This document shows positions 10,006 to 38,109 of a DNA stretch of 64,000 nt, one piece after another; positions within the stretch are counted from its first letter, which is position 1, and each line of letters starts with the position of its first letter. This stretch comes from Escherichia coli (GTDB lineage: Bacteria > Pseudomonadota > Gammaproteobacteria > Enterobacterales > Enterobacteriaceae). The notes under the pieces were generated by a model. It was given only the letters and a program-made list of their open reading frames with translations, was not told where the DNA came from and ran no database searches. Location of the stretch: the NCBI RefSeq assembly GCF_050920415.1, contig NZ_CP169309.1; one strand, given 5' to 3'. The position numbers and the translations under genes are program-made.

Positions 10006-12318
10006 ATGCCTCGCCTGTTAACCAAACGCGGCTGCTGGATAGCGCTGGCAGCTGCGCCTTTTCTCCTTTTTTTTGCCGCGTGGGGAGCAGATAAACTCTG
10101 GCCTCTACCATTGCATGAAGTCAATCCCGCACGCGTAGTCGTGGCGCAGGATGGTACGCCACTCTGGCGTTTCGCCGATGCTGAGGGCATCTGGCGCTAT
10201 CCGGTAACCATCGAAGATGTCTCTCCGCGTTACCTTGAAGCACTGATCAATTATGAAGATCGCTGGTTCTGGAAGCATCCGGGGGTAAATCCATTCTCGG
10301 TGGCGCGCGCAGCATGGCAAGATCTCACTTCGGGACGGATTATTTCCGGCGGCAGCACACTCACCATGCAGGTTGCTCGTCTGCTTGATCCTCACCCCAA
10401 AACTTTTGGCGGCAAAATTCGCCAGCTCTGGCGCGCGTTTCAACTGGAATGGCACTTGTCTAAACGTGACATTCTGACCTTGTATCTTAATCGCGCTCCG
10501 TTTGGTGGTACGTTGCAGGGGATCGGTGCGGCAAGCTGGGCATATCTCGGAAAATCGCCTGCGAATTTAAGCTATTCCGAGGCGGCAATGTTAGCGGTGT
10601 TACCGCAAGCGCCCAGCCGACTGCGTCCGGATCGCTGGCCGGAACGTGCCGAGGCCGCACGTAATAAAGTGCTCAATCGGATGGCTGCGCAAGGTGTGTG
10701 GTCCCGTGAGCAGGTAAAAGAATCTAGTGAAGAGCCCATCTGGTTGGCACCCCGACAAATGCCGCAACTGGCACCGCTGTTTTCGCGCATGATGCTCGGT
10801 AAAAGCAAAAGCGACAAAATCGTTACTACGCTGGATGCTGGTTTACAGCGTCGTCTGGAAGAACTGGCGCAAAACTGGAAAGGACGATTGCCACCGCGCA
10901 GTTCGTTGGCAATGATCGTTGTTGATCATACTGATATGAGTGTGCGCGGCTGGGTAGGATCGGTTGATCTTAATGATGATTCCCGCTTTGGGCATGTCGA
11001 TATGGTCAATGCGATCCGATCGCCGGGGTCGGTACTCAAACCGTTTGTTTATGGTCTGGCGCTGGATGAAGGCTTGATCCACCCTGCATCGCTGTTGCAA
11101 GACGTTCCCCGGCGCACTGGTGATTATCGACCAGGCAACTTTGACAGCGGTTTTCATGGCCCGATCAGCATGAGTGAGGCGCTGGTGCGCTCGCTGAATT
11201 TACCTGCTGTGCAGGTGCTGGAAGCCTATGGACCGAAACGGTTTGCGGCAAAGTTACGCAATGTTGGATTGCCGTTATATCTGCCCAATGGCGCTGCGCC
11301 GAATCTTTCGCTCATTCTCGGCGGCGCAGGTGCAAAACTGGAGGATATGGCTGCAGCGTATACCGCATTTGCTCGCCACGGTAAGGCGGGTAAGTTGCGC
11401 TTACAGCCGGGGGACCCATTACTTGAGCGATCGTTAATGTCGCCGGGGGCCGCGTGGATTATCCGCCGTATTATGGCAGATGAAGCGCAGCCGCTTCCGG
11501 ATGGCGCTTTGCCACGCGTCGTACCACTGGCGTGGAAAACAGGAACCAGTTATGGCTATCGCGATGCATGGGCTATTGGCGTTAACGCTCGTTACGTAAT
11601 TGGGATCTGGACTGGCAGACCGGACGGTACGCCCGTTGTCGGTCAGTTTGGCTTTGCCAGCGCCGTACCGCTGTTGAATCAGGTCAATAATATCTTACTG
11701 TCGCGCAGTGCGAATCTGCCGGAAGACCCGCGTCCTGATTCTGTAAGCCGTGGCGTTATCTGCTGGCCGGGTGGGCAATCATTGCCAGAAGGTGACAGTA
11801 ATTGCCGCCGACGTCTTGCCACCTGGTTGCTCGAAGGTAGCCAGCCACCAACATTACTTTTACCGGAGCAGGAAGGAATAAGTGGGATTCGTTTCCCCAT
11901 CTGGCTTGATGAGCAAGGTAAACGTGTTGCTGCTGATTGTCCTCAGGCTCGACAAGAAATGATTAATGTCTGGCCATTACCACTTGAACCCTGGCTACCT
12001 GCTGCTGAACGACGAGTAGCGCGCTTACCTGGGGCATCAACAAATTGCCCGCCGTATGGTCGTGATGCTCAGGTACCTTTACAGTTGATTGGTGTGCGTG
12101 ATGGCGTAATTATCAAACGTCTGCCAGGAGCTACTGATGCGTCATTACCAGTACAATTAAGCGGAGGAACAGGCGAACGCTGGTGGTTTCTTAATGGTGA
12201 ACCGTTAGCTGAACGCGGGCGTAACGTGACTCTGCATTTGACAGAGAAAGGCGATTATCAATTGCTGGTAATGGACGAAATGGGGCAGGTGGCGACAGTG
12301 AGATTTGTCATGCAGTAG
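10006..12318 (+). CDS. pbpC: Penicillin-binding protein 1C (peptidoglycan glycosyltransferase)
   Basis: 770 aa; glycosyltransferase motifs (EDRWFWKH, RKG) and transpeptidase fold; ATG abuts the yfhM stop. Confidence 0.9.
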   Translation: MPRLLTKRGCWIALAAAPFLLFFAAWGADKLWPLPLHEVNPARVVVAQDGTPLWRFADAEGIWRYPVTIEDVSPRYLEALINYEDRWFWKHPGVNPFSVARAAWQDLTSGRIISGGSTLTMQVARLLDPHPKTFGGKIRQLWRAFQLEWHLSKRDILTLYLNRAPFGGTLQGIGAASWAYLGKSPANLSYSEAAMLAVLPQAPSRLRPDRWPERAEAARNKVLNRMAAQGVWSREQVKESSEEPIWLAPRQMPQLAPLFSRMMLGKSKSDKIVTTLDAGLQRRLEELAQNWKGRLPPRSSLAMIVVDHTDMSVRGWVGSVDLNDDSRFGHVDMVNAIRSPGSVLKPFVYGLALDEGLIHPASLLQDVPRRTGDYRPGNFDSGFHGPISMSEALVRSLNLPAVQVLEAYGPKRFAAKLRNVGLPLYLPNGAAPNLSLILGGAGAKLEDMAAAYTAFARHGKAGKLRLQPGDPLLERSLMSPGAAWIIRRIMADEAQPLPDGALPRVVPLAWKTGTSYGYRDAWAIGVNARYVIGIWTGRPDGTPVVGQFGFASAVPLLNQVNNILLSRSANLPEDPRPDSVSRGVICWPGGQSLPEGDSNCRRRLATWLLEGSQPPTLLLPEQEGISGIRFPIWLDEQGKRVAADCPQARQEMINVWPLPLEPWLPAAERRVARLPGASTNCPPYGRDAQVPLQLIGVRDGVIIKRLPGATDASLPVQLSGGTGERWWFLNGEPLAERGRNVTLHLTEKGDYQLLVMDEMGQVATVRFVMQ

Positions 12319-14486: not shown

Positions 14487-15500
14487 ATGAATACTGAAGC
14501 CACGCACGACCAAAATGAAGCACTTACTACCGGCGCTCGCCTGCGTAATGCTCGCGAACAACTAGGACTTAGTCAGCAGGCCGTTGCTGAGCGACTTTGC
14601 CTGAAGGTTTCCACGGTACGCGACATTGAAGAAGATAAGGCACCTGCCGATCTTGCTTCAACATTCCTGCGCGGATATATCCGCTCTTATGCGCGTCTGG
14701 TACATATTCCAGAAGAAGAACTGCTACCGGGGCTGGAAAAACAGGCTCCACTACGAGCTGCAAAAGTTGCGCCGATGCAGAGTTTTTCCCTCGGTAAACG
14801 CCGCAAAAAACGTGACGGCTGGCTGATGACCTTCACCTGGCTGGTGTTGTTTGTGGTTATTGGCCTGAGCGGTGCCTGGTGGTGGCGAGACCACAAAGCT
14901 CAGCAGGAAGAGATCACTACTATGGCCGATCAATCTTCTGCGGAACTGAGCAGTAATAACGAACAGGGGCAGAGTGTTCCGTTAGATACGTCGACAACCA
15001 CAGACCCGACTACCACGTCCACGCCGCCAGCGTCTGTGGATACTACCGCAACTAACACGCAAACACCTGCCATAACTTCGCCAGCACCAGCTGTTGATTC
15101 GCAACAGAATGCAGTTGTTTCACCTTCACAGGCAAATGTTGATACTGCTGCGACCCCGGCACCAACGGCAACAACAACGCCAGATGGTGCTGCGCCGCTG
15201 CCAACCGATCAGGCTGGCGTGACCACGCCGGCGGCTGATCCGAATGCGCTGGTGATGAACTTTACTGCCGATTGCTGGCTGGAAGTCACTGATGCTACCG
15301 GTAAAAAACTGTTTAGCGGTATGCAGCGTAAAGACGGTAATTTGAACTTAATCGGCCAGGCTCCGTACAAACTGAAAATTGGTGCGCCAGCCGCAGTACA
15401 GATCCAGTATCAAGGGAAACCTGTCGATCTGAGTCGTTTTATCAGAACTAACCAGGTTGCGCGTCTGACCCTAAATGCCGAACAATCACCGGCGCAGTAA
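14487..15500 (+). CDS. rodZ: Cytoskeleton protein RodZ
   Basis: 337 aa; N-terminal HTH, one transmembrane segment, Thr/Pro-rich linker. Confidence 0.9.
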
Positions 15501-21916: not shown

Positions 21917-24109
21917 ATGTCACAGGGGATGTGCATGCTGCGATGGAAACGCTGTATTATGCTAACATTTATCTCTGGAGCTGCTTTTGCGGCTCCAGAG
22001 ATAAATGTTGAGCATAAAGAATCGTTACCTGATTTAGGTAGTCAGGCCGCACAACAGGAAGAACAAACCAACAAGGGTAAATCGCTAAAAGAGCGTGGTG
22101 CCGATTACGTCATTAACTCTGCCACGCAAGGGTTTGAAAACCTGACACCCGAGGCGCTGGAGTCCCAGGCCAGAAGCTATCAGCAAAGTCAAATTACCTC
22201 TACGACACAATCTTATATTGAGGATACACTCTCCCCCTACGGTAAGGTCCGAACGAATCTTTCTCTTGGTCAGGGCGGCGATCTGGATGGCAGTTCCATC
22301 GACTATTTTGTTCCCTGGTATGATAATCAAACTACTGTTTATTTCAGCCAATTTTCTGCACAACGAAAAGAAGATCGTACGATCGGGAATATTGGGCTTG
22401 GTGTAAGACATAATTTTGATAGATGGTTATTGGGTGGAAATATATTTTATGATTATGATTTTACCCGTGGGCATCGCCGTTTAGGTTTAGGCGCCGAAGC
22501 GTGGACTGATTATTTAAAATTCTCTGGCAACTATTATCACCCGCTTTCTGACTGGAAAGACTCCGAAGATTTCGATTTTTATGAGGAGCGTCCTGCGCGC
22601 GGTTGGGATATTCGCGCCGAAACCTGGCTACCCGCTTACCCGCAGATTGGCGGCAAAATCGTTTTCGAACAATATTACGGTGATGAAGTCGCGCTTTTTG
22701 GCACCGATAATCTGGAGAAAGATCCCTTCGCCGTCACGCTGGGTGTGAAATACCAGCCCGTACCACTCATTGCCGTAGGAACGGATTTCAAAGCCGGCAC
22801 TGGCGATAATACCGATCTTTCTGTTAACGCAACGCTGAACTACCAGTTTGGTGTCCCGCTCAAAGACCAGCTTGATCCTGACAAAGTGAACGCGGCTCAC
22901 TCGCTCATGGGCAGCCGCCACGACTTTGTTGAACGTAACAACTTTATTGTTCTGGAATACAAAGAGAAAGATCCGCTCGATGTCACTTTGTGGCTGAAAG
23001 CCGATGCGACGAATGAACATCCCGAGTGCGTGATTAAAGATACGCCAGAAGCAGCCATCGGGCTGGAAAAATGTAAGTGGACCATTAACGCGCTCATTAA
23101 TCATCACTACAAAATCGTTGCTGCCTCCTGGCAGGCGAAAAACAATGCTGCACGTACGCTGGTGATGCCGGTTATCAAAGAAAATACGCTTACTGAAGGT
23201 AACAACAATCACTGGAATCTGGTGCTGCCTGCCTGGCAGTACAGCTCTGATAAAGCCGACCAGGAAAAACTCAATACCTGGCGGGTACGGCTGGCGCTGG
23301 AAGATGAAAAAGGCAATCGGCAGAACTCCGGCGTGGTGGAAATCACCGTTCAGCAGGATCGTAAAATTGAGCTCATCGTTAACAACATCGCCAATGTACC
23401 GGATGAGAACAATCACAGCCACGAAGCCAGCGCGCAAGCGGATGGTGTAGATGGTGTCGTCATGGATCTCGACATTACCGATAGCTTTGGCGACAACACT
23501 GACCGTAACGGTAATGTCTTGCCGCAGGATAATCTCAGCCCGCAGCTGTTTGATGCCAACGATAAAAAAGTGACGCTGACGAATAAACCCTGCACCACTG
23601 AAGTGCCGTGCGTTTTTATCGCCAAACAAGATAAAGAAAAGGGGACCGTTACGCTCTCCAGTACGTTGCCCGGTACTTTCCGCTGGAAGGCGAAAGCCGC
23701 CCCTTATGATGACAGTAACTATGTTGACGTAACGTTCCTGGGTTCTGACATCGGCGGGCTGAATGCTTTTATCTACCGCGTTGGTGCAGCTAAGCTCGTC
23801 AATCTTATCGGCAACAAAGAACCGTTGCCTCTCAATAGCCGCTATCGCTTTGTGCTGTGGCGCGACGCTAACAAAGACGGCGTGTTCCAGCTTTCTGAGA
23901 AGCTCACTGACGACGAGATGAAACAGTATGACTATCAGTGGGAATTCACGGGGAATAGCGTAAATGGCAATACCGGTGCGCAAACCAATACCACGAACGT
24001 CGATATAGAGATTCCGGCAACCAACAAGGACGCGGCAGCAAAGTTTAGTGCCCAGGTAACCGATGGCGTGCAGGGATACGGTTTGCAGGTCAATTACAGC
24101 AAGAAATAG
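21917..24109 (+). CDS. sinH: Intimin/invasin-family inverse autotransporter (SinH-like outer-membrane adhesin)
   Basis: 730 aa; signal peptide; beta-barrel region typical of intimin/invasin (YFVPWYDNQTTVYFSQFSAQRKEDRTIGNIGLGVRHNF); preceded by AT-rich leader 21726-21916; start among ATGs at 21917/21929/21935 uncertain. Confidence 0.75.
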   Translation: MSQGMCMLRWKRCIMLTFISGAAFAAPEINVEHKESLPDLGSQAAQQEEQTNKGKSLKERGADYVINSATQGFENLTPEALESQARSYQQSQITSTTQSYIEDTLSPYGKVRTNLSLGQGGDLDGSSIDYFVPWYDNQTTVYFSQFSAQRKEDRTIGNIGLGVRHNFDRWLLGGNIFYDYDFTRGHRRLGLGAEAWTDYLKFSGNYYHPLSDWKDSEDFDFYEERPARGWDIRAETWLPAYPQIGGKIVFEQYYGDEVALFGTDNLEKDPFAVTLGVKYQPVPLIAVGTDFKAGTGDNTDLSVNATLNYQFGVPLKDQLDPDKVNAAHSLMGSRHDFVERNNFIVLEYKEKDPLDVTLWLKADATNEHPECVIKDTPEAAIGLEKCKWTINALINHHYKIVAASWQAKNNAARTLVMPVIKENTLTEGNNNHWNLVLPAWQYSSDKADQEKLNTWRVRLALEDEKGNRQNSGVVEITVQQDRKIELIVNNIANVPDENNHSHEASAQADGVDGVVMDLDITDSFGDNTDRNGNVLPQDNLSPQLFDANDKKVTLTNKPCTTEVPCVFIAKQDKEKGTVTLSSTLPGTFRWKAKAAPYDDSNYVDVTFLGSDIGGLNAFIYRVGAAKLVNLIGNKEPLPLNSRYRFVLWRDANKDGVFQLSEKLTDDEMKQYDYQWEFTGNSVNGNTGAQTNTTNVDIEIPATNKDAAAKFSAQVTDGVQGYGLQVNYSKK

Positions 24110-24164: not shown

Positions 24165-25157
24165 ATGAAACCTGATATGAAACGTGGCCTGACAAAAGTC
24201 GCGCTCGCGTTGATGCTGGCTGGATACTGTGCCGTACCAGCCGCTATGGCGGAAGATGCCGCCTGGGTCGCCAGTGGAACGACCGCTGAATTCGAGGGGA
24301 CTATACCCTGGCTCTATCGCGAAGGGGGGAATGCCACGATTAACTCGGAAGATGCGGATCACATTAAAGTGACGTCTGATGGTAAAGGGACCCGTCCTGA
24401 AGGTAGCGAGACGGATAAACGCCTTTACTCAGGGGATACCATCACGCTGGGTTGGGATATCGGCGATACCGAAGGGGATATTGATGATGGTCCCGCAGGC
24501 ATTGATGCGAAAACGACAGCCACTATCAAATGGTACAGTTACAGCGATAATGCGGGTGGCGGTAAAACGGAGCTGACCGCAGCGGCAGGCAAGACGAGTT
24601 ATAAACTCACTGATGACGAACGTGGGCGTTATATCGGTGTTGAAATCCAGCCCATCACCCAGACCGGTAATCCTTTCCAGGGAACGTCGCTGACTCTGCT
24701 GGATATTTCAACGGCCAGCGGTGGCGGCAGCGATACGGACAATGTCGATCCCGGCCCGGTTGTGAACCAGAATCTGAAAGTTGCCATCTTCGAGAAAGGC
24801 ACCACTACCAACCTTATCGGTGGTAATACGGCCATTGCGCTTAACAAAACGTATGTGGCCAAACTGTACTCGGATGAAAACCAGAACGGTAAATACGACG
24901 CAGGTACGGATATGGACGTTACCGCTAACTATGACTTTGCATGGGTCTTTAACGGTAACAGTAAACAACTCGGTGCGGCGGGCGGTATTGCTAATGCCAG
25001 CTTCGATAACAATGACATTGTTATCCCGCAAACTAACGAAGAAGCAAGAACCAGCCTTAACGGTAGTGACCGTAATGGTAAGAGTGGTCTTGCGATCCCG
25101 GCAAACGGCGACGGCGTTCAGGGCTATACGCTGTCAATTATTTACAAACACCACTAA
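24165..25157 (+). CDS. Secreted protein, SinI-like; paralogous to the SinH C-terminal passenger region
   Basis: ORF 24159-25157; ATG at 24165 with RBS aaggagag; signal peptide; C-terminus ...GDGVQGYTLSIIYKHH parallels SinH ...DGVQGYGLQVNYSKK. Confidence 0.5.
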   Translation: MKPDMKRGLTKVALALMLAGYCAVPAAMAEDAAWVASGTTAEFEGTIPWLYREGGNATINSEDADHIKVTSDGKGTRPEGSETDKRLYSGDTITLGWDIGDTEGDIDDGPAGIDAKTTATIKWYSYSDNAGGGKTELTAAAGKTSYKLTDDERGRYIGVEIQPITQTGNPFQGTSLTLLDISTASGGGSDTDNVDPGPVVNQNLKVAIFEKGTTTNLIGGNTAIALNKTYVAKLYSDENQNGKYDAGTDMDVTANYDFAWVFNGNSKQLGAAGGIANASFDNNDIVIPQTNEEARTSLNGSDRNGKSGLAIPANGDGVQGYTLSIIYKHH

Positions 25158-25197
25158 TGCGCACAACAGCATTCCCATACGGGGATGCTGTTTTCCG

Positions 25198-25249
25198 CCT
25201 GTTTTGCTTAGCGACGCGTTAAGCAAAACAGGTTGATGTTTTGTTTATC
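25198..25249 (+). terminator. Strong hairpin (13-bp perfect arms cctgttttgctta / taagcaaaacagg) followed by T-rich tract, between sinI-like and ratA-like genes
   Basis: Inverted repeat read directly; could be a terminator or attenuator in front of ratA. Confidence 0.4.
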
Positions 25250-26209
25250 ATGCTGGAGTTTTCTACATGTCGGTATGTCTGAAACCTGGGAAAATCATTA
25301 TGCTTCTGGGCATGTTGGCAGCTTTTATGCTGTCTGACTTTGCACGGGCAGGGGCGGAATGGCAGACATATCCTGATTCTACAGGCGAGTTTAACGGAAC
25401 CGTTCCTTTTGCCGACAGCGCCAGCGTACCCGTCTATCAGGGCAGTGTTCAGCTTAATCCTGCTGAATCTCATGATGTCGGGTTTACTGCTAAACCGAAT
25501 GAATTTAGCGTTGACGATGACGCTGCTAACCTGATTGTTGCTAATCCTCAGGACAATGAAGGCGACCAGTTTTCCACACCACCTGCGCTGCGCTGGGAAA
25601 ATCAAACACCCCCTACCGTCAGCCTGATGTGGGCCGATGCCGCCACGCCCGATGTGCCCCTTAACCCACAACCCATTGCTAACCGTAGCTTTTGCGCTCA
25701 GGGGCTGGCCGGACGCTCGCTGGTGGCCTGGCCGCAGATTGATGCGCAGCAAACCCTCCCACTGCTCTACCTGCTTACCTCGACCGGGTATCCCTATGCG
25801 GGGACGGTGGCGCTGGTGGACCAGAAAGTGACCCTGAACATCGCGCCCGCGCAGGGCGATTTAATCTCGGTGAGCGCCAGTGGTTATAACGAAACGATCG
25901 CGGCGGCAAAAACCACCGTTGGCGACACCATCACGCTCACCGTCACCACTAAAGATTGTCAGGGCAACGTCGCGGGTAATATTCCGTTTATTATCAAACG
26001 TAAAGATGCTGAAAATCGCCAGGGGGCGGTGAATAATAGTGCGCCGGTGATACTGGATAGCACCGAGTTAACGACGACGGATACCGAATACCATGGCACT
26101 TCTGATGCCAACGGCACGGCCACCATCACGGTGAGCCAACCGAATGGCCCTGGCGTCAAAACGCCATTGGTGGTCAGCATCTCCGGTTTTGCGCAAACCA
26201 GCGAAACCG

Positions 26210-29200
26210 CGGTGATTTTTACGGTACTCACCAGCCCGGACGTGGCGCAGGCTACGATGTGGGGCCATATGGCGGAGACGGTAGAAGCCCACGGTTACAC
26301 CTTCAGTCGACCAAAGCTGGCGGCAGAAGTCAGCAATGAAAGCGCCACGGTCGTCGATCATAACGAAACCTGGTCCACCTTCACCTGGAGCGGCGCAGAT
26401 AGCCACTGCACCGTGCTGCCCGGCATGCGCCACTTCGGCGCGCTGGCGACCGTTATCCCCACGTCGGTGCAGACAGTCCTTGGCTGGCCGATGCAGGGGG
26501 ATTATTACTGGTCATCGCTGGCGGGCACCACCGGGCACCACCGGGCAGCACCATGCGGCGGATGTTTCAAACCGTGGTGAAATGCAAAAGCCGGATAGCA
26601 CCCCGTTTCTTGTGAGCTGCGTGGATAAACCCGCGCCTGACGTCGAACCGAAAATCGTCCTTACGCCCGAAAACTATGATGATACGGCACAGGCGATGAA
26701 AGCGAAGGTGGGTGAAGACGCCTCGATGCGTCTGACAATCACCGACAATAAAAATAACGATCAACCGCTGGCGTATTACTACTTCTCGCTGCATCTGGAT
26801 GACGGTGTTAACCGCAAAAATCAAACCGATCCTGCCTGGGAAGCCCATCCGGTGCAGATTACTGGTGGTTCGAATTTGCAACAGGTTGATGCTCACACCT
26901 ATGAAGGCATGACCGATGTCAACGGTCAGGCTTCGCTAACCCTGAGCCAGCCCGACGGCGCAGGCGTGAAAACCCATATCACGGCGAAAATGCGCAGCAA
27001 TTTTACGGCCACGGATGCCAAAGACGTGATTTTTACTGTGATCACCAGTCCGGACAGCGACAAGGCGCGGATGTGGGGCCATATGCGCGGCATTGTTGTA
27101 TCTGGCAGTCTGTTCAAACGCCCATTACTTGCGGATGAAACTGAGCATGAACTGGGATCGGTGCGGGAAAATAACGAAGACTGGGCGCTGTTCGATCAAG
27201 ACACCAGTATGCAGGCAGAATGCGGTGTGGGCCATATACCCCGGCAGAGTTCGCTGGAAGGCTTATTTACTGCCCATCCAGGCAACGCCATCGGCACGGA
27301 ATATGGCTGGCCCACCGCACAACAGAGCTACTTAAGCGCGGCGGAGCAAGCCACGCATTCATCGGTGAATTTGGCGAACGGGAGCGTCGACAGCTACTCC
27401 GGCTTTAAGCGAAATTATCTCTCCTGTTCGGGCAATGAGATGGTAGCGAACGTTGAAGTCAGCACCGATCACGATATTACTCTCGGCAGCAAAGCACAGG
27501 CCAAAGTGGGAGACACCATCGTGATGACCGTGCGTACGATTAACGCGCTCAATAATACCCCCGTTCCCTTTACAGCCTTCACCATCACTAAAGGCATGGG
27601 GTATAACCGAGCGGGGCAGGTGAGCGGGTTTGATGACCCGAGCAGCGGCGCAATCACGATGAATGGCACGCAATACGGCACATCGCAGCCCTCTATGGTC
27701 TACACGGGTACGACAGATGCACAAGGTGTAGCAACGGTCGAAATAGAGCAACCCCAAGGGGTGGGGTTAAGAACCGTGCTGAGCATTACGCCGGTCAATT
27801 CCCATCTACCAAATGCCATTAATTACAATGTTATTTTTACCACCCCAACCAGCCCGGATGTTAGTGGGGCGCAGATGTGGGGCCATATGGATGAAACGAT
27901 TACCGTTGATTCATTAACCTTTACCCGGCCTAAGCTGGCAGCAGAAATCACCAGTCCGGATGGCACATTAACGGAAAAAAACGAAGTCTGGGCGCGTGTT
28001 AGCCAGGCAAGTACGGCCATTACCAGTAAAGGCGGTTGCGGAGCCAATATGCTGCCGCGCCGCTCACAGCTCAATGCGCTCTATGACGCTAATAACGGCA
28101 ATGCGGTGCAAACCACACACGGCTGGCCGACGCAGCGTCAGCCCTACTGGAGCAGTTCCCCCGCGGATGTAACGCCGCACTATTACACCATTGCCCTGGA
28201 TAACGGCGCACAGGCTATCGGCGGCGATACGCCGGTTTACGTCAGTTGCCTGACGACGGCGAACAAACCTGCCAGCAGCATTACGTTGGATGTGGTTGAT
28301 AACGCACAGTGGGCTGCCGGAAATAACGCGGCGAAGCTGAAAAAAGGCGAAACGCTACGGGTTAAGGTAACGGTAAAAGATGCGCAGGGTAATCCGCTCA
28401 CGGATATGCCATTTAAACTCAGTCGCGGAGACGGTTATACCCGCACGGGCGAAAAACATATTGCCGGTAGTGGCGATGCGCTGGTGGCACCGGTGGTGAT
28501 TAACAGTGGGCTGGCGGATGAAACGACGTTGAACGACACCGCGGGATTTTATACTGCCATGACCAGTAGCGACGGCAGCAAAATCCTCAATATTACACGC
28601 CCGGATACTCACGGCACCAAAACGGCGCTGACGGCGACGCTTTACTCTGATGCGACGAAAAAAGACAGCCTGGATACGATCTTTACTGTGGTCACCAGCC
28701 CGGATAGTAGCAAAGCGAAAATGTGGGGCCATATGCCGGAAACCTTAACGGCGGCAGATGGTACCGTTTTTAAACGCCCATTGCTGTTAAAGGAACTGTC
28801 AAGTCAGACCGGGCGAACATCAATATTCGAAGACAATGAAAACTGGGCGCTGTTTACCCAAACCCAGGCGAACTCAACCAGTAGCGGCTGCGGCGCTAGC
28901 TATGTTCCCACTCAGGCTGGGTTGTTGTCGTTGTTTGATAATCACGCCGGCAATACCATAAAAACCGTCCAGGGCTGGCCGGTTGTAACGCGTTATTTAT
29001 CCAGCACGCCCGACAACACTGGCATGGAACAGCGTAACTACAAAGCGGTGGATCTCGGTAATGGCACCAGTGCCATGGTGTCAACGTCGACACTGGATCT
29101 ACTGACCTGTCAAACCACGCCGGTCACCACGGTGACCCAGATTCTACTGGAAGCGGCAGATCCTGCGGCTCTGGTTTATGTTGACGATACACTGAGTGTA

Positions 29201-32200
29201 GTTAAAGCCAAAAAAGGCGAAGAGTCGGTAGTGCGCGTCACCACGAAAGATGCGCAAGGTAACCCGGTTGGCAATGCGGCGTTTATTCTGAAACGTGCCA
29301 CCAGCATAAACCGGAGGTATACATCAGCGACAGCGAGTGCAGGTGCGCTGACCGTAGCCGATGCCTGGGGAAATACGCGGAGTAATTTTCAGGCAACAAC
29401 TGAAATGATCTATGGCGTGACGGGGGCTGACGGGTCGACAACCTTTACGCTGAAACAGGATAACAGTACCGGGTTAAGAACCGATCTCACGGCATCACTG
29501 GATGGCGTCAGCGGCGTTCAGGCGACCCTCCCGGTGGTCTTTACCGTGGTAACCAGCCCAGATTCTCCTAAAGCGAATTTTTGGGGGCACATGCCTGAAA
29601 CGGTAACGGCCTCTGATGGCATGACGTATAAGCGACCATTACTGTTTAAAGAACTTACCAATAACTATGCACGCTATAGCACTTTTGAGAATGGTGAAGA
29701 TTGGGCAAGATTCAGTGTGGTTCAGTCAAATAACACCGATATGGATGGATGCGGTGCAGAGTATATGCCGACACTGGATGGCCTGCAGTCTTTGTACAGT
29801 GCCAATAGTGGTAATGCGATGGGTACAGTGCAGGGATGGCCGGTAGCAACCAGTTATCTCACCAATACACCGAGTGATACGCAATTAAGTAACCGTTATT
29901 ACAATGTGGTGCAGCTGAATTCTGGCGCGGTTTCTCAAATCGTGACCACCGTGCTGGTATTACAAACCTGTCGCACAACACCTGCGGCTGTTGCCAGCCA
30001 CGTGTCTCTGGAGCCTGCGGACGCCACGCAATTCGTTAAGGTTGACGATAATCTGAGCGCCATTAAAGTGAAAAAAGGCGATGAGGTTGTTATTCGCGTC
30101 ACGACCAAAGATGCGCAAGGAAACCCGGTGGGTAATACGCCGTTTACACTGAAGCGCAGCAGTTCTTTCAATCGCCAGAATGTATTAGTGACGATGCAGA
30201 CGGTTTCGGTGACACCCGCAGCGGCCAGTACAGTTGATACCAATGCATCGGCCACCGTGTATGGCGTGACCGGGCCAGACGGAACCACCACGATAACACT
30301 CCGACAGGATGCGTCCACCGGACTTAAAACCGACTTTTATGCCCTGTTGAATGATACCGGGGTGTCGTCGAACACCTTGCCAGTGATCTTCACCGTCGTC
30401 ACCAGCCCGGATACACCGCTGGCGGCCAACTGGGGGCATATGGCGGAAACCTTTACCAGCAGCGAAGGCGTCACCTTCAAACGGCCTTTCCTCAAAGCTG
30501 AACTTTCTGGTGGTACGGCGGTTACGACTAATAATGAAGTCTGGTCGCGTCTGACAGCAACGGAGAAAATGGATGCCAGCAAGGCTGGATGTGATGAGAG
30601 TTATCAACCGCTGATGACTGACATGCAGGGGTTGTATGCGGATTACCCTAACAACCAGTTGGGCACGGTGCTCGGCTTGCCGACTTCCGCAGGGTATATG
30701 TGGGCCTACGACATGATGACGGTTTCTGGCAGCAGCTGGAGCAACCAGGCATATTCGCTCGTTAATGGTCAGATAGTTCAGGCATCGTCCAGTTATACGG
30801 CGGTAGTGATGTGCCTGGTGGAACCGCATACCGTTCCGGCGACGATAGCGATCACTTCAACAGCGCAGGATGTGGCAAAAACGGCCAGCAATGGTGGTCG
30901 ACCGAGCGCCGTGGCGAAGAAAGGTGAGACGATTCCGCTGACGGTGACCGTACGTGATAGCGCCGGGAACCCGGTGCCCTACGCCGACTTTACCCTCACG
31001 CGTGAAACGACGCTGGATCGCTCGAAAGCAACCGTTAACTCAAATGCGGACGATCTTACCGTGAAGTCATTGATACCCGTGAACAGCGACGCTGGGCTGA
31101 CGGCAAATGGGTCAAAAGTGCTCAGAACAACGGGCAGTGATGGCACAGCCACCTTTGAAGTGAGTCAGAATGCCACGACCGGTCTGGCGACACCGATAAC
31201 CGTCACGCTGGCGCGCGATACAACCAAAACCGCCACGCTGGATGTTATCTACACGGTGATAACCAGCCCGGACTCACCGAGCGCGAAATTCTGGGGGCAC
31301 ATGCCGGACACCTTTACCAGTTCGGCAGGCGTCACCTTCAGACGACCGCTGCTGAAAGCCGAAGCGACTTCAGGGTCATCGATTAGCACTAACGGCAATG
31401 GTGAAGTGTGGTCGTATATGAGCAACTTTCAAAATTTAACATCGACAGATTGTCCGCTGGAGAATCAACCGCGCAGTAATGAATTGTTGGATTTGTATAA
31501 TGATCATCCCAACGGTGCGATAAAGACTGACCTGGGGCTGCCGATATATGCAGGCAAGTGGTGGGCTTATGATATGGTCATGCCGGATTTATATACGTGG
31601 CAGTATCAAACTGTCAGCCTGAGCGCAGGAGATATCGCGAAGAGCTCGTCAACCAACGCGCTGATGCTTTGCCTGACGAAGCCGCATCCGGCAGGCGTCA
31701 GCGTAATGTTGACGTCATCCGCAATGGATAACGCCAGAACCCTCAGTAATGGCGGGCGACCCAGCGCGTCAGTGAAAAAAGGTAACCCACTGCCAATTGT
31801 GGTGACGGTCAAAGATCGTGATGGTAACCCGCTGGCGGGAGAGGCCGTGACGCTCAGGCGTGGTTCAGCGATGAGTCGTTCAGGAGCAGGAGTGAACACG
31901 ACGGCAAATGCAATTACGTTGACAGAATTGACACCTGTGTCGGCGGAGTTTTCTCTGGCCGCACACGATACGCAATGGCAAGGTTTCACCGGCAGTGATG
32001 GTACGGCCACTTTCAATGTTGAACAGCCTGAGACCATCGGCCTGGCCATTCCATTCACCGCTATACTGGCGCGAGATGTCGCAACTACCAGCGTTCTTGA
32101 TGCGATCTTTACCGTCGTCACCAGCCCGGATTCCGCAATGGCGACCTACTGGGGCCATATGCCAGATACGGTAACGGCGGAAAACGGCGTGGTCTTTGAA

Positions 32201-33000
32201 CGGCCTAAATTGTTGAAAGAGCTGCCGTCGAGCGCTGGAGTCAGTCAGGTGACGGATAACAATGAAGTGTGGCCGTTGTTTAACGCAACGCAAAGGGTAG
32301 ACGGCAACCTCAGCCCATGTGAATCGGCGCGTCGCCCATTGAGCGATGATTTATCATCGCTCTATGCGCGTTATCCGGGGAACACGCTGACGACTCAAAT
32401 CGGCTGGTCTACGAAGTATGCATGGTGGGCACTGGATAACAGGCAGGGGAATGCCCTGGTTGTCAGTCTGAGTAATGGTTTGGAGTCGTCGACGGCGAGT
32501 ACGGCGTATCAGGGATGTCTGGTCAATCCTCGCGCGACCGTCTCCAGCGTCACGCTGACATCGACCGCGATGGATGCCATTACTCAGGCGGCGAAGGTAA
32601 AAAAAGGTGAAGCCATGCCCATTGTCGTTACCGTAAAAGACAGCACCGGGAAGCCGGCACCGAATGTCGCGTTCACCTTAAAACGTGGTGATGCCGTGCC
32701 GCGTAACAGCGGGGCGACGTTGTATGGTAATGTTGCGGCGATGGATGATATGACGGTACAACCTGCCAGCGGGACGGTGGTAACGCTGGCTGACAGTGGG
32801 AATACGATTGATGGTGTGACAGGGGCGGACGGTACGGCAAGTTTTACTGTTCGTCAGGATAATACGCCAGGATATAAAACACCGTTGACGGTGACGCTGA
32901 CGGATAACGCCACAATAACGGCGACGCTGGACACAATTTTCACCGTGCCGACCAGCCCGAATGTCGCCACGGCGTATTTCTGGGGGCATATGGCGGATAC
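26210..33000 (+). repeat. Array of about nine diverged ~850-bp coding tandem modules within ratA
   Basis: Conserved DNA/protein core ttYaccgtggtcaccagcccggat...tggggccatatg recurs near 26210, 27040, 27830, 28680, 29540, 30390, 31250, 32100, 32940. Confidence 0.7.
26523..26552 (+). repeat. Three tandem copies of a 10-bp unit (gggcaccacc, gggcaccacc, gggcagcacc) at the ratA frameshift
   Basis: Read directly; removing one copy restores a continuous frame reading ...[19 protein letters not shown]... Confidence 0.8.
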
Positions 33001-33419
33001 CGCCACAGTAAGTGGCAAGACGTTACATCGCCCGCTATTGAAATCAGAGTTGCCGTCAGGGGCTACAGCGGCAGTGGCGCCAACGGTGAATAATGAAATC
33101 TGGGCGCTGGCACATGTGATCGATGCTCAAAAATGGGATGTTGCAAAGCAGTGCGGTGACTTTAGTAAAGCACCGAGCTATACCGATTTACAGTCATTAC
33201 ATAGCAGCTTTAGCGCGCTGGGATGGCCATCATCGATAAGCTTCCCCTATTTCTCTACCGATCGGGCCGGTTCGTTCTATTGTGGCATGGATGAAGGGGC
33301 GGGGACACAAAACTGCGGTATTCAGGCATCCAGTACTGCGGGGTTTGCAACCTGCTTCCAGTAGTCTTAACGGGTCTGTAAATGGGGGCCAAGATGTAAA
33401 TAAGATTCGCAATGCGTCA

Positions 33420-34817
<1,398 letters not shown>

Positions 34818-38061: not shown

Positions 38062-38109
38062 TTAACAGCTAACTCATAGCAAATCATTCCTATTCAGATG
38101 TCAACTCAA

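Follow-up and report, generated by a model that had tools for sequence, protein, structure and literature searches.

RatA and RatB belong to the CS54 island of Salmonella (Kingsley et al. 2003, as cited in PMC4943183), and Rat-like proteins have been hypothesised to be substrates secreted via a co-encoded SinH-type inverse autotransporter (Heinz et al. 2016, PMC4943183). The RatA, RatB and RatA-like systems of the CS54 island and its Escherichia coli counterpart (NF011843, NF011842 and NF011844) share with the E. coli gene examined here a common slot, which runs from der and a zinc-ribbon gene to xseA with sinH and sinI upstream, and a common architecture of repeated BIg21 (DUF823) and InvE_AD (DUF824) modules. 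Unlike them, this gene, located in a stretch of 64,000 nucleotides of contig NZ_CP169309.1 (the window), is broken at codon 419–420 and encodes no full protein. It is a pseudogene of the RatA-like family (NF011844 / PRK15316), and very probably a frameshift pseudogene of a RatA-like adhesin that arose via a 10-bp tandem duplication and is fixed in one lineage.

Host-restricted Salmonella lose adhesins of the CS54 island, as seen in the shdA, ratB and sivH pseudogenes of S. Typhi. The present case is alike in that point or frameshift mutations have cost certain lineages a large adhesin gene from one and the same family of loci, whereas the species and the lesion differ. Contingency loci, in the sense of Moxon and colleagues, include the phase-variable adhesin and LOS genes of Neisseria and Haemophilus, which carry tracts of many units. 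The tract described here resembles them as a coding-region tandem in a surface-protein gene in which unit number sets the frame; in contrast to them, it is far shorter, no copy variation between strains or within the lineage was seen, and the repeat is unconserved. The triple CTGG of lacI is reportedly a hotspot of spontaneous frameshifts, a finding ascribed to the 1978 work of Farabaugh and colleagues. The resemblance to that hotspot lies in the gain of one unit by slippage in a short, low-copy tandem, revertible in principle, whereas the unit here is 10 bp long, the precursor held two imperfect copies (9/10) and a single event was fixed in a lineage rather than recurring.

The gene order of the locus is der, a zinc-ribbon gene, sinH, a sinI-family gene, the RatA-like gene and xseA, the last on the opposite strand, and the annotation of identical and related records likewise places a sinH-sinI-ratA cluster between der and xseA. 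The coordinates of the individual features are collected in Table 1. As the RatA-like gene ends the cluster and xseA runs towards it on the opposite strand, its interruption affects no gene further down and polarity is irrelevant. The sinI-ratA intergenic region (25158–25266) contains two strong adjacent hairpins, with a 12-bp stem at about 25165–25192 and a 17-bp stem at 25197–25233 followed by a T-rich tail, and its folding is unusually stable (MFE -50.4 kcal/mol, z = -6.96), none of 200 shuffles being as stable. In appearance these hairpins look like a terminator or attenuator, which suggests that expression of ratA is perhaps not simply coupled to that of sinH and sinI. Apart from these hairpins, promoter and terminator scans across the locus gave counts not above those of shuffled sequences. 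Further downstream, a prophage begins directly after the guaA stop and occupies window positions 38064–64000 (at least to 62000); it carries a tyrosine integrase, RecT, terminase, portal, major capsid and tail genes, and is about 99.8% identical to prophages of SCU-116, MS20673 and others.

Table 1. Positions in the window of the repeat tract, the broken RatA-like gene and its upstream neighbours.
Feature	Position	Strand	Remarks
sinH, intimin-like inverse autotransporter, intact	21935..24109	+	NCBIfam NF033423, 1467 bits vs cut-off 999
sinI-family autotransporter-associated protein, intact	24165..25157	+	NF040711, 376 bits vs cut-off 165
RatA-like adhesin pseudogene, whole	25267..33364	+	8098 nt; 8088 nt / 2695 aa minus one copy
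5' ORF, 437-aa truncated product	25267..26580	+	frame 1; premature TGA 26578-26580
Tandem array of 10-bp unit CGGGCACCAC, last copy CGGGCAGCAC	26522..26552	+	Tandem Repeats Finder, 3.1 copies
Extra 10-bp copy	26523..26532 (26533-26542 equally good)	+	+1 frame shift at codon 419-420
3' remnant, 2260 aa from ATG	26582..33364	+	gene-caller start at ATG 26582; remaining BIg21-InvE_AD modules

A preliminary description made from the letters of the window had recognised a RatA-like giant adhesin split over two open reading frames, one of 25267–26580 and one in frame 2 ending at 33364, and both frames were recovered with exactly these ends. The family assignment was also correct, for the two pieces match NF011844 collinearly and the annotation and the Pfam domains agree with it. 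NF011844, 'RatA-like protein', is the best NCBIfam family, and the pieces hit consecutive parts of its profile, 1–423 and then 432 onward. Scored alone, the 437-aa piece covers profile positions 1–423 with 908 bits, the 3870-bit cut-off being that of the 2683-position profile, and residues 1–1000 of the remnant, also scored alone, cover positions 432–1428 with 2157 bits. In the source records, too, intact relatives as well as the remnant go by the name 'RatA-like protein' (NF011844 / PRK15316). Frame 2 is open over 26336–33364, that is, from a point upstream of the called start of the remnant. Removal of 26523–26532 yields an 8088-nt open reading frame of 2695 aa with zero internal stops, close to the continuous protein of about 2690 aa that had been estimated for the deletion of one copy. 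The uninterrupted frame expected of a functional RatA-like member is thus absent from the gene as it stands, which runs into a stop at 26578–26580.

The 437-aa stub starts with a segment resembling a signal peptide, continues through the N-terminal region and the first BIg21 domain into the first InvE_AD domain, of which about three quarters is retained, and closes with 17 out-of-frame residues before the TGA. On the repaired protein, Pfam places the first BIg21 at residues 219–321 and the first InvE_AD at 324–449, and the frameshift at codon 419–420 therefore falls within this first adhesion domain. Four complete BIg21 (PF05688) and InvE_AD (PF05689) modules, with a fifth begun, were assigned by Pfam within residues 1–1176 of the repaired protein; the alternation of the two domains carries on through the remnant in precomputed Pfam assignments, and nine WGHM module motifs were counted in the repaired protein.

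The break lies at a tract of three tandem copies of a 10-bp unit, GGGCACCACC twice and then GGGCAGCACC, so that the letters of 26521–26555 read g GCGGGCACCAC CGGGCACCAC CGGGCAGCAC Catg and the junction sequence of the three-copy state is CACCACCGGGCACCACCGGGCAGC. Tandem Repeats Finder reported the array with period 10, 95% matches and a score of 55, as the sole array within 25000–34000. The third copy carries one mismatch (C-to-G), and perfect 10-bp periodicity extends over 26 nt, equivalent to 2.6 perfect copies. The 64-kb window contains a single triple tandem with a period of 7–15 and at most one mismatch, where chance would give about 0.011. The tandem copies had been correctly placed at the frame switch beforehand, although their extent had been given as 34 nt, whereas the measured length is 30–31 nt with a mismatched third copy.

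The three-copy state is shared by a clonal lineage. Over its whole 8098 nt the gene matches, at 100% identity, a CDS of strain MFDS1022581 (NZ_CP169399.1), which PGAP labels "adhesion domain-containing protein", "frameshifted" and pseudogene. Over the 49 kb of MFDS1022581 matching the window, the RatA-like gene alone among 35 features carries a pseudogene flag, so errors do not abound in the assembly. The exact 437-aa product, including its 17 out-of-frame residues, was found on 60 contigs in 84 index blocks (NCBI and Logan), with accessions that span several submitters and include E. coli STEC_7v, and the exact product of the remnant was found on 16 contigs. Three copies were present in all eight related loci that were fetched from complete genomes, NCBI drafts and Logan read-assemblies, namely NZ_CP169399.1, AP025751.1, GCA_015278885.1 and GCA_002966065.1, and the Logan assemblies DRR168430, SRR19986569, SRR23760928 and SRR21604249. 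These loci are 1–3 SNPs apart from the window. The prophage after guaA is present in the window, AP025751.1 and GCA_002966065.1 and absent in MFDS1022581 and SRR19986569, so the pseudogene lineage is polymorphic for it. Since the nine lineage sequences keep three copies despite their SNP and prophage differences, the duplication predates that diversification.

Several differences among the lineage members were also observed. At window position 22182, sinH codon 83 is CAG (Gln) in the window and CTG (Leu) in all eight related loci, and this private nonsynonymous SNP indicates that the window represents an isolate separate from MFDS1022581; a second difference between the two is located at 15199, in rodZ. 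In the GCA_015278885.1 locus, where the gene start at 10316 corresponds to window position 26582, the remnant displays two extra substitutions, at window positions 28991 and 29751, both nonsynonymous, one changing Arg to Cys and the other changing Cys to Tyr in a GCGA motif. With n=2, these substitutions hint at a possible relaxation of constraint after the frameshift.

Outside this lineage the extra copy was not observed. Of 5426 complete E. coli genomes, 1733 contain the segment probed by a 96-nt query across the tract; exactly one of them matches at or above 99% identity, and none lies in the 90–99% band. The comparison of copy number among related strains, which had been recommended earlier, was carried out here: the lineage loci all have three copies, and 59 other matches, taken at even intervals from the ranking, are all 10 bases shorter than the three-copy query. 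In an alignment with six diverse alleles, a clean 10-column gap falls exactly at the extra copy. Among these six, the two-copy precursor CGGGCACCAC CGGGCAGCAC is found only in the N96-type allele, the intact N96 allele reading CTGGCGGGCACCACCGGGCAGCACCATG at the tract, and the first unit is CGGGGATGAG, CGGGGCTTAC or CGGGCACTAC in the remaining alleles. The repeat is absent from the site in four of the six, is weaker in CFSAN061771 (8/10 matches) and reaches 9/10 in the N96-type allele; being unconserved in other alleles, it is not a selected feature of the gene. Adjacent unit pairs with at most one mismatch occur at 8 positions of the repaired gene, so that the two-copy precursor looks like a chance arrangement.

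Apart from the 10-bp unit, 77 nt and 27 aa separate the window gene from the closest intact allele, N96 (WP_000109683.1). When the repaired gene was compared with N96, 53 of the 77 nucleotide differences lay within the last ~1 kb of the gene (comparison over window 31000–33364), a clustering at the 3' end that suggests a recombination tract there. A revertant was also sought among the intact relatives, and the nearest among the 40 of 467 members of the 90% cluster that were read differs by 27 aa and is not one. The predicted products of one-copy (442 aa) and four-copy (452 aa) alleles had no exact match in a collection of 15 billion proteins, nor had the repaired 2695-aa protein in the window and GCA_015278885.1 backgrounds, where such exact-sequence look-ups would miss a revertant with any additional amino-acid change. 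A variable-gap scan of metagenome contigs allowing one to four copies returned three matches, all of two-copy length.

These observations bear on how the third copy should be read. Repeats are classic sites of assembly error and the three-copy state is found in a single RefSeq complete genome, which might suggest that the strain truly has two copies and that the third is a sequencing or assembly artefact, as the preliminary description had allowed; this option is refuted by the identical three-copy sequence in at least eight independent records, which come from different projects, and it is further opposed by the truncated product on 60 contigs including STEC_7v and by the clean insertion of a 10-bp unit, atypical of homopolymer-type errors, so that an artefact is left with almost no probability at all. 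The suggestion of a slipped-strand switch, with the adhesin off at three copies and on at two at a useful frequency, starts from a genuine tandem repeat within a surface-adhesin gene where one unit alters the frame, and the 2.6 perfect copies formed by the duplication would somewhat favour slippage. However, it did not find support, as no other copy number was encountered in the lineage, in the genomes sampled, in the metagenomes or in the exact-protein look-ups: the survey of 1733 genomes, by identity bands and 59 sampled spans, revealed no copy-number polymorphism outside the one lineage; the window and the eight related loci are three-copy in nine of nine cases; one-copy, four-copy and reverted products are missing from the protein collection; and the metagenome matches are uniformly of two-copy length. 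Known contingency tracts have many units whereas this one has two to three, and several attributes of a contingency locus are lacking here, since in place of a long tract of many identical units there are 3.1 copies now and two imperfect copies in the precursor, unit number was seen to vary neither between strains, one of 1733 genomes apart, nor among the nine lineage sequences, and the tract is not conserved across alleles. Phase variation of this kind is accordingly very unlikely, and a search of the literature on E. coli sinH and ratA turned up only the treatment by Heinz et al. 2016 of Rat-like proteins as candidate SinH substrates, and nothing on phase variation of ratA. With its 26 perfect nucleotides the tract could, mechanistically, now and then lose exactly one unit and so return to the intact frame, and a newborn on/off switch of low frequency, seen here just as it arises and giving the lineage back an intact RatA-like adhesin from time to time, may be imagined with a probability that is slight indeed.

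It could also be supposed that the gene is still functional, either by programmed +1 frameshifting within the overlap of 26523–26580 or as a two-piece protein with a partly active secreted stub. The stub retains one BIg21 domain, and the arrangement TGA A ATG at 26578–26584, with 1 nt from stop to ATG and GGTG just upstream, makes translational re-initiation conceivable; a re-initiated product, on the other hand, would be without a signal peptide. Against retained function, the stop lacks a prfB-like shifty context, as UGG precedes it and GGU, the codon in the +1 frame, would presumably be unable to re-pair with tRNA-Trp, and the remnant of one lineage member has two nonsynonymous changes (n=2), including the loss of the Cys of the GCGA motif. 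The absence of the frameshift from the other 1732 genomes likewise indicates that this is not an evolved recoding site. A programmed +1 ribosomal frameshift of the prfB type was therefore rejected, given the context UGG UGA A where no re-pairing would be expected and the restriction to one lineage, and retained function in any of these forms is considered highly improbable. The reading of an inactivating duplication, by which the gene is a pseudogene, is the one that stands, with the reservation that 'recent', as it had been called, applies only in part, because the duplication is fixed in a lineage that has since diverged by SNPs and a prophage.

Decay of the same gene was also observed independently in other E. 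coli, with lesions that correspond to the window region 25267–27330. A product ending at residue 373 (stop at codon 374) was found on 83 contigs of other lineages; a frameshift right after residue 373 was seen in another lineage; a frameshift near residue 330 was present on 5 contigs; and a variant with a 688-aa in-frame internal deletion, which joins an early module to the last, was likewise present on 5 contigs. Different lesions in different lineages indicate recurrent ordinary gene loss and not a dedicated switch, and the lineage described here probably undergoes no biologically meaningful switching at this tract.

The frameshift pseudogene very probably originated from an ancestor allele in which two 10-bp direct repeats, imperfect copies of each other, happened to lie side by side as CGGGCACCAC CGGGCAGCAC, with ..A-G-T-T-G-Q-H.. 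as their translation, and in which a single replication-slippage event would have duplicated one 10-bp unit. The ten added bases shift translation to the +1 frame at codon 419–420, in the first InvE_AD of a protein with about nine modules, and translation ends 17 codons on, at the TGA of 26578–26580. The product left is a 437-aa N-terminal stub bearing the export signal, and the 6.8-kb 3' remnant, if re-initiated at the ATG at 26582, would have no signal peptide and would be unable to reach the surface, so that surface display of the adhesin has probably been lost. The mutation is passed on vertically and has stayed stable through later SNPs and the difference in the neighbouring prophage.

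The feature itself is ordinary, being already annotated by RefSeq/PGAP as frameshifted, and it involves no new mechanism. It identifies one E. coli clone, recovered from animal-source food, a strain named STEC_7v and other samples, in which sinH and sinI are retained but no functional RatA-like adhesin is left. The RatA-like lesion may serve as a lineage marker or aid in the reading of colonisation phenotypes, and it adds an example of the recurrent decay of this giant-adhesin gene across E. coli.
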